From: Qipengyuania sp.
GTDB lineage: Bacteria > Pseudomonadota > Alphaproteobacteria > Sphingomonadales > Sphingomonadaceae
Reading direction: 5' to 3'
DNA length: 64,000 nt
Assembly: GCF_964227205.1 (NCBI RefSeq)
Contig: NZ_CAXQVB010000006.1
Location: forward strand, 118,579 to 182,578
Of this stretch, positions 33,842-37,518 are shown piece by piece. The notes beneath the pieces are model-generated. The model saw only the letters and a program-made list of their open reading frames with translations. It did not search any database and was not told where the DNA came from. Positions within the stretch are counted from its first letter, which is position 1. Every line of letters starts with the position of its first letter. Made by a program: the position numbers and the translations under genes.

Positions 33842-33919
33842 GTCATTGCGAGGAGCCGTCAGGCGACGCGGCAATCCGGATAGCGTGGGACTGGATTGCT
33901 TCGCTACGGTCGCGACGAC
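33842..33919. repeat. REP-like palindromic doublet (GTCATTGCGAG type)
   Basis: gtcattgcga...gcaatcc...ggattgc...tcgcgacgac nested inverted repeats between trpA and accD. Confidence 0.7.
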
Positions 33920-33930
33920 TGATCACTGTC

Positions 33931-34719
33931 TCACTGGGCGGCGTGGACGGCCTGCGACAAGGCCGAGGTCAACTCGCGCAGCTTGGCAGGCGCTTCCGCA
34001 CCATGCTCGGCCACAAGCTCGACCAGCGCGGAACCCACGACCACACCATCGGCCACACGCGCGATTTCGGCGGCCTGCTGCGGCGTGCGCACGCCGAAGC
34101 CGACCGCGACCGGGATGTCGGTCGCCCTTTTGATGCGGCTGACATTGGCCTCGATCGATTCGATTGCCGCTTGCTGCATGCCGGTGATGCCCGCGACCGC
34201 GACGTAGTACAGGAAGCCTTGGCTGCCCTCGACCACGGCGGGCAGACGGTTGTCATCGGTTGTCGGTGTGGCGAGGCGGATCGGGGCGATTCCGGCAGCG
34301 CGCAGTGCGGGGCCGAGCGCATCGTCCTCCTCGGGCGGGATGTCGACGCAGATCACGCCATCGACGCCGGCGTCTTTCGCCGCGGCGGCGAACCATTCGG
34401 GCCCGCGCCGGATCATCGGGTTGGCATAGCCCATCAGCACCACCGGCACCTCGGGATGACGCCGGCGAAACTCGGTCGCGATCCGCAGCACGTCGGCAGT
34501 GGTCGTGGCCGCGCCGAGCGAGCGGATATTGGCCTGCTGGATCGCGGGACCATCGGCCATGGGATCGGTGAAGGGCATGCCCAGCTCGATCACATCGGCA
34601 CCGCCCTCGACCAGCGCGTCGAGATTGGCAGCCGTGTCGCCATCGCCTGCGGTGAGGAAGCACACGAGCGCGGGGTGGGGTTTGGCGAAGGCTGCGGAGA
34701 GGCGATTCGGGGTGTTCAT
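33931..34719 (-). CDS. trpA: Tryptophan synthase alpha chain
   Basis: IELGMPFTDPMADGPAIQ, LMGYANP, DIPPEE, FLYYV...GITG, VAVGFGV, DGVVVGSA. Confidence 0.97.
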   Translation of the reverse strand: MNTPNRLSAAFAKPHPALVCFLTAGDGDTAANLDALVEGGADVIELGMPFTDPMADGPAIQQANIRSLGAATTTADVLRIATEFRRRHPEVPVVLMGYANPMIRRGPEWFAAAAKDAGVDGVICVDIPPEEDDALGPALRAAGIAPIRLATPTTDDNRLPAVVEGSQGFLYYVAVAGITGMQQAAIESIEANVSRIKRATDIPVAVGFGVRTPQQAAEIARVADGVVVGSALVELVAEHGAEAPAKLRELTSALSQAVHAAQ

Positions 34720-34909
34720 GAGGTCAGGTTCGTTCATCTAACTCGGCAGAAGTCTGAGACATGGACCGGGTGTTACACTGTCCAAGGGCAAAAAAGCTGA
34801 GGGGGTGCAAGTGGGCTGCTTTCGGTCCGGAGGCAGGAAGAAGGTCGACGGTTCATGCAAGAGTCTTGGCACGGACACGACCGTGTAGGACAGGCGCTTA
34901 TTGAAGTGG

Positions 34910-35188
34910 TCAGTCATCTAGCACTTTCGTGAACATGCCTATCAAAGCGAAGATTACCGTCATAGCTACCGCCCACCAAAAGTAGCGGTTCATATTTTCC
35001 ATATCGCCTGAAGCGGATTGGCCAAGGATCCGAAAGCCGAAGAACAGCGGAAAACCAATCACAAGCCAGAACAAGCCAATCTTGGGTCGAAACGGAACCT
35101 CACGTCCCCAAATCCGCACGGTCTTTGTTCGACCCTTGGACTTGTTAGCCTGTTTACGCTTACCTGGCCGTTTGCGGCGGTGGCTCAA
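34910..35188 (-). CDS. Small membrane protein with Lys/Arg-rich N-terminus and 2 TM segments
   Basis: 92 aa, TTG start; MSHRRKRPGKRKQANKSK then two hydrophobic helices; AT-richer than the flanks. Confidence 0.6.
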   Translation of the reverse strand: MSHRRKRPGKRKQANKSKGRTKTVRIWGREVPFRPKIGLFWLVIGFPLFFGFRILGQSASGDMENMNRYFWWAVAMTVIFALIGMFTKVLDD

Positions 35189-35217
35189 AGCACCACTCTC
35201 AGTTTTTCCATCAAATG

Positions 35218-35307
35218 ATCGTCACCCCGGCTCCCGAGCCGGGGTCGGGCTGCTTTGAGCGTTGCGCGGAAAGAAGCACCACCCCGGATCAAGTCCGGGG
35301 TGACGAT
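35218..35307. repeat. 90-bp REP doublet (REPIN-like, CGTC type)
   Basis: Perfect 13-bp terminal inverted repeat atcgtcaccccgg/ccggggtgacgat; each end carries its own ccccgg...ccgggg hairpin. Confidence 0.88.
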
Positions 35308-35313
35308 GGTGGT

Positions 35314-35355
35314 GGGGTGGGGCTTGGCAAAGGCGCTGGCCAGGCGATCACGCAC
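35314..35355 (-). pseudogene. Relict duplicate of the trpA 5' end
   Basis: [16 protein letters not shown] vs true TrpA NRLSAAFAKPHP: 9/11 aa and 26/33 nt over the shared block; similarity stops 6 nt before the REP. Confidence 0.75.
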
Positions 35356-35529
35356 GACGCTTGCGTTCCCAATTTTCGACAACGCCAAGCGCAAGTCCGA
35401 AGAGGAGCGAGATAAGGATAGCGGTGTTTCGGATGAACTCTGCTTCGGCTCGATTAGTGAAAGCCCATGCCCAAATGGCTATGACGAGACAGACAGCAAC
35501 TGCTGCTGCAAAGATGTGTCCAAGCAATC

Positions 35530-35533
<4 letters not shown>
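35348..35533 (-). CDS. Small 2-TM membrane protein
   Basis: 61 aa; GTGA overlap with the trpB stop; two hydrophobic helices and a basic tail. Confidence 0.6.
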
Positions 35534-36747
<1,214 letters not shown>

Positions 36748-36851: not shown

Positions 36852-36879
36852 GGGCGGTCCTGCGGGGCCGCCGCTTTTA
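36852..36879 (+). terminator. Hairpin with a short T-run on the antisense strand of the trp operon
   Basis: gggcggtcctgcggggccgcc-gctttta; 21 nt identical to 50811-50831. Confidence 0.5.
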
Positions 36880-37518
36880 TGCCCGCACCGCGGCGCAGAA
36901 GGCAGCAATCTTGCCCGCGTCCTTCACTCCCGGAGCACTTTCCACTCCGCTTGACGTGTCGACCAACGGCGTGCCGGTTGCCGCTATCGCCTCGCCCACA
37001 TTGGCAGCGGAGAGGCCCCCGGCAAGACCCCAAGGCAAGGATAGCCTAAGGCCGGACAGAAGCGACCAGTCGAAGCGCAGGCCCATGCCGCCGGGCAGCG
37101 CGGCGTCGCTGGGCGTCTTGGCATCGAACAGGATGAAATCGGCAGCCTCGCGATAGGCGTCGGCGCGGGCGACATCGGCGGCATTGCTGACGGGCATCGC
37201 CTTCCACACCGGCAGGTCGAAGCGCGAGCGTAGCGCGGCGCAGCGTTCGGGAGTTTCCTCGCCATGGAGCTGGATAGCATCGAGCCGGCCCGCAGCCACG
37301 GCCTCCCGCAGCAGCGCGTCATCGGGATCGACGAAGACGCCGACCTTGCCAATCGTTGATCCCGCCCGAGCGGCGAGCGTCGCGGCAGTGGCCGGGTCGA
37401 CATGGCGCGGGCTCGGCGGGAAGAAGTTGAAACCGACGAAGTCCGCGCGCGCCGCGACAACTGCATCGAGCGTGTCGACGTTCGAAATTCCGCAGATCTT
37501 GATCCGTGCAGTCGCCAT
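36877..37518 (-). CDS. trpF: Phosphoribosylanthranilate isomerase
   Basis: IKICGI, GFNFFPPSPR, IQLHGEE, LFDAK, GGMGLRFDW, LAGGLSAANV, VDTSSGVE. Confidence 0.96.
   Translation of the reverse strand: MATARIKICGISNVDTLDAVVAARADFVGFNFFPPSPRHVDPATAATLAARAGSTIGKVGVFVDPDDALLREAVAAGRLDAIQLHGEETPERCAALRSRFDLPVWKAMPVSNAADVARADAYREAADFILFDAKTPSDAALPGGMGLRFDWSLLSGLRLSLPWGLAGGLSAANVGEAIAATGTPLVDTSSGVESAPGVKDAGKIAAFCAAVRA

Follow-up and report, generated by a model that had tools for sequence, protein, structure and literature searches.

The genes trpB and trpA are the textbook pair for translational coupling and are usually regarded as indivisible. In translational coupling by an NTGA overlap, the stop codon of the upstream gene overlaps the start codon of the downstream gene (PMC6728339). 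How can such a pair come to be parted by two small open reading frames (ORFs) and by fragments of its own ends? This question is raised by a 64,000-nt stretch of Qipengyuania sp. (contig NZ_CAXQVB010000006.1, positions 118,579 to 182,578), which we refer to as the window. On its minus strand, to which all coordinates given here refer, the gene order is trpF (37518..36877), trpB, an inserted region, trpA, accD and folC. Numbers beginning with G, L and P denote compared genomes, junctions and contigs, with G000 being the genome of the window. We found that the trpB/trpA overlap is a hypervariable slot within this operon (trpF-trpB-[slot]-trpA-accD-folC), and that the feature is a real and unusually clear hotspot inside an operon. 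As one joint explanation, we consider it likely that the fillings of this slot are swapped by homologous recombination and occasionally stacked by one-sided recombination, leaving scars of gene ends, and that the window holds two stacked fillings around such a scar: trpB-ORF61-[trpA' / REP / 'trpB]-ORF92-leader-trpA, where REP stands for a repetitive extragenic palindromic element.

We compared the trpB-trpA junctions of 80 species of the genus (Erythrobacter-like) and of 60 other genera of the family, 140 junctions in all. The ancestral state is an ATGTGA overlap, which was kept in distant genera of the family and in only 6 of the 80 species of the genus; the other 74 junctions were occupied, and the gap between trpB and trpA ranged from -1 to 1154 bp across the 80 species. 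Other families of the order and distant genera had either the canonical overlap or a gap of less than 60 nt. The arrangement of the window is not fixed among its relatives: it was present in one of the 79 other species of the genus (G056), and the nearest neighbour by trpB carried the same cargo in 5 of 77 cases. Inspection of the ORF list showed no integrase-like ORF from trpF to folC, the flanking ORFs lying outside the family scans, and the cargo had no boundary motif in common besides NTGA. The preliminary description of this stretch, made from the sequence alone, had taken the junction for a site of gene turnover that operates without an integrase. The junction alignment, with its variable cargo, trpA 5' relics and REP hairpins (the latter in 15 of the 80 species), agrees with that proposal.

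The cargo was joined by NTGA stop/start overlaps, usually to trpB and often to trpA. A first ORF (at least 30 aa) had its start codon overlapping the trpB stop in 54 of the 74 occupied junctions, and in 28 species a single ORF filled the entire gap and overlapped both the trpB stop and the trpA start. The 84 first ORFs recovered from the 140 junctions fell into 44 phmmer clusters. Most cargo consisted of small two-helix membrane ORFs, with at least one hydrophobic helix in 49 of the 54 first ORFs of the genus. The ratio of non-synonymous to synonymous substitution rates (dN/dS) lay between 0.06 and 0.26 in ten homologous pairs (0.07 for ORF92), which indicates that slot ORFs are real genes under purifying selection. 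They are also compositionally foreign, with a median GC content at third codon positions (GC3) of 0.59 versus 0.84 in trpB. We considered whether the cargo might have come from a plasmid or a phage, and rejected this since only the REP element matched plasmids and nothing matched phages. The idea that cargo genes are multicopy 'junction hoppers' was likewise rejected, as tblastn of 165 slot ORFs against the genome returned only weak DUF559/GFA matches elsewhere.

Membrane ORFs were not the only occupants: two types of palindromic repeat, DUF559 cassettes, a GFA-domain protein and a Cys-rich protein of family DUF6980 were also present. With a Vsr-like nuclease fold (PF04480 E = 2e-37), DUF559 genes occurred in the slot of 18 of the 140 junctions, 11 of them among the 80 of the genus (L008, L011, L012, L020, L032, L039, L043, L061, L069, L080, L081, L085, L094, L106, L108, L112, L123 and L128 in all). 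These genes show 50-70% mutual identity, are flanked on both sides by inverted hairpins (CCCTCTCCCCTTCAGGGGAGAGGG...) and often provide the trpA start codon. A soluble Cys-rich ORF of 68-69 aa with a DUF6980 match (E = 1e-23) was coupled at both ends in L003, L040 and L085; slot cargo is therefore not exclusively membrane protein.

Evidence that fillings move between species came from the one other genome that carries the arrangement of the window. Between G000 and G056, the tract 34648..35582 differed at 5 of 935 bp (99.5% identity), while identity in the surroundings, 19 kb of common gene order, ranged from 76 to 94% per 500 nt. It was ~92% in the bodies of trpB and trpA, and a mismatch occurred every ~12-15 nt in the flanks. 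The tract covers ~50 nt of the trpB end, the entire filling and the first ~75-90 nt of trpA. A tract of such identity within such surroundings indicates that homologous recombination in the conserved ends of the two genes has recently carried it across species. The entire composite filling has thus recently moved between the G000 and G056 species, or into both from a third, and the crossovers lie in the near-invariant final ~50 nt of trpB and within ~80 nt of the trpA start. The trpB 3' end is near-invariant across the genus. The preliminary description had proposed entry of DNA from a related genome by homology-facilitated recombination; this comparison supports the entry of DNA from other lineages by recombination in the conserved flanks.

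A clean exchange of this type swaps one filling for another. How two fillings may come to stand side by side is suggested by scars at other junctions, of which those in L071, L123 and L096 are unmistakable. Relics of the trpA 5' end proved to be recurrent, and were found in L071, L123, L064, L088, L081, L017 and L002. In L071, trpB is followed by ORF64, ~160 nt of a trpA 5' end (E = 1e-33), 37 nt, a trpB end (GCCGAGCGGCTGGGAGTGGAGATGTGA), ORF105 and trpA. In L123, which belongs to another genus, the order is trpB, a DUF559 cassette, a fusion ORF, ORF65 and trpA, with NTGA overlaps kept throughout. The fusion ORF has 85 codons in frame, namely the first 72 TrpA codons and the last 13 TrpB codons (MTRLATTF...TTTAD|IFTVAEALEIKL*); it overlaps its neighbours at both ends, and its illegitimate joint lies at a shared GAC. 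L096 carries a 110-nt 'trpB relic (E = 7e-23) before its second cargo gene. Since the breakpoints vary among L071, L123 and L096, they point to independent illegitimate joints and not to a site-specific reaction. The cargo ORFs flanking the scar were unrelated in every stacked case, that is in the window, L071 and L123. Compared with the resident trpA, the relics of L071 and L123 showed 13 synonymous and 2 non-synonymous codon differences, and four other species resembled the L071 relic more closely than the resident L071 gene did. This bias, together with the closer match of the L071 relic to other species, suggests that relic and resident diverged as working genes in separate lineages.

The inserted region of the window is laid out in a corresponding way. 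Its GC content is 0.55, compared with 0.67-0.68 in trpB and trpA. The 405-aa trpB (36747..35530; PF00291 E = 4e-45) ends with the stop codon TGA at 35532-35530, which the GTG start of ORF61 overlaps as GTGA. ORF61 (35533..35348), the first filling, encodes 61 aa with two hydrophobic helices. A scar frame, 'ORF69', follows from 35355 (or 35394) to 35185 and holds the trpA' relic, a REP dimer and a probable 'trpB relic. This frame opens at GTG 35355, inside an 8-nt overlap with the ORF61 stop (GTGCGTGA, 35355-35348), and its end overlaps the TTG start of ORF92 as TTGA. ORF92 (35188..34910), the second filling, encodes 92 aa with a basic N-terminal tail and two helices. The stop of ORF92 lies in a further overlap (ATGACTGA) with ORF59 (34917..34738), a frame of 59 codons that bridges ORF92 to the ATG of trpA (TAGATG). 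The chain of stops and starts accordingly reads GTGA, GTGCGTGA, TTGA, ATGACTGA and then TAGATG, and formally it is unbroken. The trpA gene (PF00290 E = 1.6e-83) starts at ATG 34737 or ATG 34719 and ends at 33931, which leaves a spacer of 172 nt or 190 nt, respectively, after ORF92. The preliminary description had listed the ORFs, overlaps, relic, REP doublet, spacer and trpA, and each of them is present where it had been placed; two features had been overlooked, namely the resemblance of the scar-frame end to the TrpB C-terminus and the bridge formed by ORF59. ORF59 itself is probably not a gene: in relatives its frame shifts and the DNA stays conserved. As a separate observation on trpB, its frame is shifted near the 3' end in the L012 and L013 assemblies, which could be an assembly error or a pseudogene.

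The trpA' relic of the window measures 42 nt, or 14 residues (35355..35314). It contains a 35-nt direct repeat of the real trpA (35314-35348 versus 34672-34706, 28/35 nt or 80%, at a spacing of 642 bp) and it matches the trpA-5' profile of the genus (nhmmer E = 0.0013). Its Smith-Waterman score of 38 was reached by none of 300 shuffles. The profile match and the shuffles place the relic beyond chance, and the agreement with true TrpA that had been reported earlier was reproduced: 9/11 aa and 26/33 nt are identical, and 3 of the changes are synonymous. Directly before ORF92, the scar frame ends ...DDHLMEKLRVVL, and its last residues, EKLRVVL, resemble the EKLGVEM* of TrpB. The stretch 35211..35185 is a probable relic of the last 8 trpB codons. 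It matched the end of the window's own trpB at 13/24 nt (p = 1.3e-3, from 61,792 genomic 24-mers preceding TGA) and the genus consensus at 15/24 nt (p = 1.8e-4). Neither local alignment nor nhmmer detected it, and only position-anchored tests were significant. It occupies the same position as the 'trpB relics of L071, L123 and L096, and the scar frame of the window would be the analogue of the L123 fusion ORF and of the L071 scar.

A further trace was seen next to ORF92 in L002, where the sequence downstream of the ORF92 homologue reads ATGACTAGCCGCCTCTCCGCCGCC..., a trpA' relic, followed by a REP. When L001 was compared with L002, the window was seen to read ATGACTGACCACTTCAATAAGCGCCTGTCC at the matching position. 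This stretch (34884-34917) looks like a deletion derivative, and hence like a second, almost erased trpA' relic.

Taken together, these observations fit the following sequence of events. In the usual case, a filling would be replaced by a double homologous crossover in the trpB end and the trpA start. Occasionally, an incoming allele would recombine homologously on one side and join illegitimately on the other, by homology-facilitated illegitimate recombination or an equivalent unequal exchange. Such a one-sided event would add a second filling beside the first instead of replacing it, and the joint would retain the first bases of trpA and the last bases of trpB. The outcome in the window would be trpB-ORF61-[trpA' ... 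'trpB]-ORF92-leader-trpA. On this model, the NTGA overlaps of the chain would be inherited module boundaries and not newly evolved ones, and the CGTC-type REP dimer would have arrived later, in a dispensable scar. One anchor and one illegitimate joint would be the most economical mechanism, the relics of the window being too short for proof.

Several points weigh against this interpretation. The trpA' relic of the window has too few positions to single out a donor or to rule out a local duplication. The 'trpB relic was recognised post hoc, and a gapped 39-nt alignment gave only p ~0.03; it is because of this weak result that we rate the relic as no higher than probable. The illegitimate joint in the window is hidden under the REP, which makes any microhomology unreadable. 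The synonymous bias in L071 and L123 would also be expected from a local duplication with later replacement of the trpA 5' end by recombination. Finally, the model leaves unexplained how brand-new cargo enters with exact NTGA boundaries.

The first alternative is that no foreign allele was involved. In this case a local tandem duplication, reaching from about -30 in trpB to about +45 in trpA and produced by slippage or unequal sister-chromatid exchange, would have been followed by replacement of one cargo gene and by drift. We regard this as unlikely, and yet it is the simplest route to a trpA' lying beside a 'trpB. It is also consistent with the L123 relic, which was nearest to its own trpA among the sampled genera (203/219), and with the relic of the window, which over 13 codons differs from its own trpA by 3 synonymous and 4 non-synonymous changes, a ratio compatible with drift. 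The preliminary description had read synonymous divergence as a sign of foreign origin. That reasoning would apply to the L071 and L123 relics, with their ratio of 13:2, but does not carry over to the window, where the ratio is 3:4 and the relic too short. The search for a best-matching donor of the 42-nt relic was run and singled out none: the resident trpA agrees with it at 29/39 nt, and those of 19 other species do equally well or better, up to 32/39. Local duplication is disfavoured by the two cargo ORFs, which are unrelated in the window, in L071 and in L123, as well as by the 13:2 bias, which is unexpected for a dead copy drifting from identity, and by the L071 relic, which lies nearer to four other species.

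The remaining alternatives concern the origin of the cargo and the role of the REP dimer. ORF61 has a GC content of 0.52 and a GC3 of 0.49, versus a GC3 of ~0.84 in trpB. It is an orphan whose sole match among 5.8 billion proteins is 98% identical, and it had no relative among 84 other slot ORFs. ORF61, ORF92, ORF69 and ORF59 had no family in Pfam, NCBIfam, PHROGs or PADLOC. ORF92 belongs to a small family. In L002 a homologue stands in direct TTGA overlap with trpB (69.6% identity by tblastn over 92 aa; 71%, and 72.2% over 79 aa, in other comparisons), and its place directly against trpB indicates that ORF92 can stand by itself as a module. Three close clusters were found for ORF92, and a profile search of 1.84 billion representatives returned only seven small relatives; the family profile also recovered three further slot clusters. 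The distant relatives, on metagenome contigs, measure 61-83 aa and are without the basic tail. P0010 (L151 2501-2686) has trpB on one side and trpA on the other and overlaps each by 4 nt, P0007 follows trpF-trpB on its contig, and P0008 (L150) has a 4-nt overlap with an upstream partial gene, a 106-aa fragment to which no identity was assigned. As far as the sequences of these contigs suggest, the relatives of ORF92 appear to lie in the slot in every case with readable context. Their presence there suggests that some cargo families are long-term, fast-diverging residents of the slot. ORF61 and ORF92 are predicted to be small membrane proteins, whose expression probably relies on the trp transcript and on coupling to trpB.

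From these data one might propose that the overlap is a long-lived expression platform, possibly even a birthplace, for small membrane proteins. These would be translated by riding on trpB and would not spread without the slot, and new ones could arise from trpA'::'trpB scar frames in which translation already takes place. We hold this extended proposal to be quite unlikely. A separate alternative, which we also regard as quite unlikely, has the slot ORFs born in place from coupled, open scar or 'relay' frames, with ORF61 being a young gene and not an import. The orphan status of ORF61, which holds for 5.8 billion proteins as well as for the other slot ORFs, would fit such a birth, as would the residence of ORF92 relatives in the slot wherever context can be read. 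The cargo is short and hydrophobic with atypical codon usage, and a scar frame that appears to be translated exists in L123. However, cargo GC3 of 0.49-0.60 is far poorer in GC than the local DNA that would have served as raw material, and no cargo ORF has residual similarity to trpA or trpB. Some cargo comes from known families (DUF6980, DUF559 and GFA), and small ORFs are under-called in databases, which makes orphan status weak evidence.

The REP dimer (35218-35307) spans 90 bp and is REPIN-like, CGTC-tagged and arranged head to head. Each unit reads CGTC-ACCCCGGA-CTTGA-TCCGGGGT, with a 9-bp stem and a 5-nt loop; perfect terminal inverted repeats of 13 nt bound the dimer, and its hairpin has a folding energy of -65.9 kcal/mol (z = -4.7). 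The family is multicopy, with 18 hairpin copies in the genome, and the repeat is also present on Sphingobium, Novosphingobium, Sphingomonas and Qipengyuania plasmids. CGTC palindromes of Alphaproteobacteria, mostly in head-to-head dimers and without a dedicated transposase, were described by Di Nocera, De Gregorio & Rocco (2013, PMC3733652). The window copy agrees with these in its tag, stem and loop, ~90-bp head-to-head dimer, multicopy nature and lack of a dedicated transposase, and differs in nothing notable, being here a passenger, as we read it, in a recombination scar. The first hairpin, followed by CTTCTTTCC, scores as terminator-like and may reduce read-through into ORF92. It had been pointed out in the preliminary description that the relic frame reads through the REP without a stop. 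The frame is indeed open over 35355-35185, but this is largely a property of the repeat itself, as 12 of 18 other genomic copies also lack a stop in that frame; selection for an open frame across the REP was ruled out on this ground. Between trpA and accD, at 33844-33925, lies a copy of another palindromic repeat family (GTCATTGCGAGGAGCCGCAGGCGACGCGGCAATCCAG...). The genome has ~27 copies of it, and members are also present within the trpB-trpA slot of L022, L070, L079 and L096.

The preliminary description had called the junction a REP-associated gene-capture site. Carried further, this would make the REP doublet the capture device, acting by REP/RAYT-type transposition or by REP-REP recombination. 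Two observations speak for such a role: the REPs of 15 of the 80 junctions often directly follow a trpA' relic ending in CTCGTC (which matches the CGTC tag), and the multicopy family is found on sphingomonad plasmids. The role is nevertheless highly improbable, because 59 of the 74 occupied junctions are free of REPs, the scars of L071, L123 and L096 contain no CGTC REP hairpin when read base by base, other REP copies carry no cargo, the exchanged tract ends in trpB and trpA and not at the REP, and the genome has no Y1/RAYT transposase (Y1_Tnp), which rules out RAYT-driven mobility. CGTC REPs are reported to have no dedicated transposase (PMC3733652). Given its presence in 15 of 80 junctions only and the scars that lack it, we take the REP dimer for a passenger that entered a dispensable scar later, and not for a capture device.

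If stacked fillings part trpB from trpA, how might trpA be expressed? Ahead of trpA lies a conserved leader module (34893..34719) that consists of CTGTCCTACA (34893-34884), a T-run, a hairpin motif TGGACAGTGTAACACCCGGTCCATGTC (34784-34758) and the ATG. A leader of ~190 nt had constant length in 23-28 of the 80 species, and a 70-nt block of it was invariant in five species with diverged trpB (dS 0.66 for G000 versus L002, the only pair measured). The hairpin core TGGACNGTGTAACANNCGGTCCATGTC, always after a T-run, has 11 copies in the genome (34758-34784 in the window and 10 others), located upstream of sdhB, lpdA, enoyl-CoA hydratase, GNAT and trpA genes, among others. This core together with ~40 nt downstream is invariant before trpA in several species, and deeper relatives have a direct-repeat variant of the hairpin, TGTAACACCTGTAACACC, with GTGTGTCAGGTGTGTCAG in L096. 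Searches of the slot and leader gave no Rfam family at E <= 1 and no match to a sigma-70 consensus. The element may be promoter- or operator-like. Because a conserved leader is present, it is doubtful that trpA in the window depends on the overlap chain, and we think that it may be expressed independently and is probably served by this leader. The earlier suggestion that coupling maintains trpA translation would fit the 28 species in which a single ORF spans the slot, and is doubtful in the window.

The closest known concept is the horizontal gene transfer (HGT) hotspot without mobile-element genes, flanked by recombining core genes, as described by Oliveira, Touchon, Cury & Rocha (2017, PMC5635113). 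Such hotspots share with the slot an interval between core genes, rapid turnover, the lack of integrase and transposase, and recombination in the flanking core genes. The slot departs from them in being a 4-nt stop/start overlap within an operon, in holding one or two tiny ORFs that adopt the overlap codons, and in turning over from species to species across a genus. In mechanism, the nearest parallel is sequential displacement, which Kirchberger et al. (2017, PMC5361080) described for the orphan arrays of T6SS effector-immunity, Rhs and CDI loci. Both systems would add a new module by means of a single homologous anchor and a single illegitimate joint, and in both the old module is kept and duplicated flank fragments mark the borders; in the slot, however, there are no toxin-immunity pairs, both flanks leave relics, and scars are often in frame with overlaps kept. 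Those arrays are explained by homology-facilitated illegitimate recombination (de Vries & Wackernagel 2002 and Prudhomme et al. 2002, as cited in PMC5361080). Integron cassettes are also similar, in that a fixed chromosomal site gathers promoterless small ORFs expressed from upstream, but here there is no integrase, attI or attC and no cassette boundary beyond NTGA, and the scar breakpoints vary. Genes with no known function between trpB and trpA have been mentioned for a Sargasso Sea contig, Flavobacterium and Burkholderia (PMC2395257, citing Xie et al. 2003). They are similar in being non-trp ORFs at the same junction, and the passages concerned mention them in passing, giving no turnover, coupling pattern, scars or exchange mechanism. 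Our literature search found no paper describing the trpB-trpA slot, only passing mentions of ORFs at the junction.

The window contributes a stacked filling with relics of both flanks, a quantified interspecies exchange and the apparent slot residence of ORF92 relatives wherever context can be read. It also carries a warning for annotation, since small ORFs and relics of gene ends that lie where operon genes meet are real features. The 4-nt trpB/trpA overlap is the most changeable point of the region, and most cargo adopts its overlap codons. The scars left there would be a readable record of both replacement, by double homologous crossover, and stacking, by one-sided recombination. The locus offers a natural system for measuring how accessory genes enter operons without breaking them, and is equally suited to measuring the turnover of small membrane proteins and the frequency with which illegitimate joints accompany homologous exchange.

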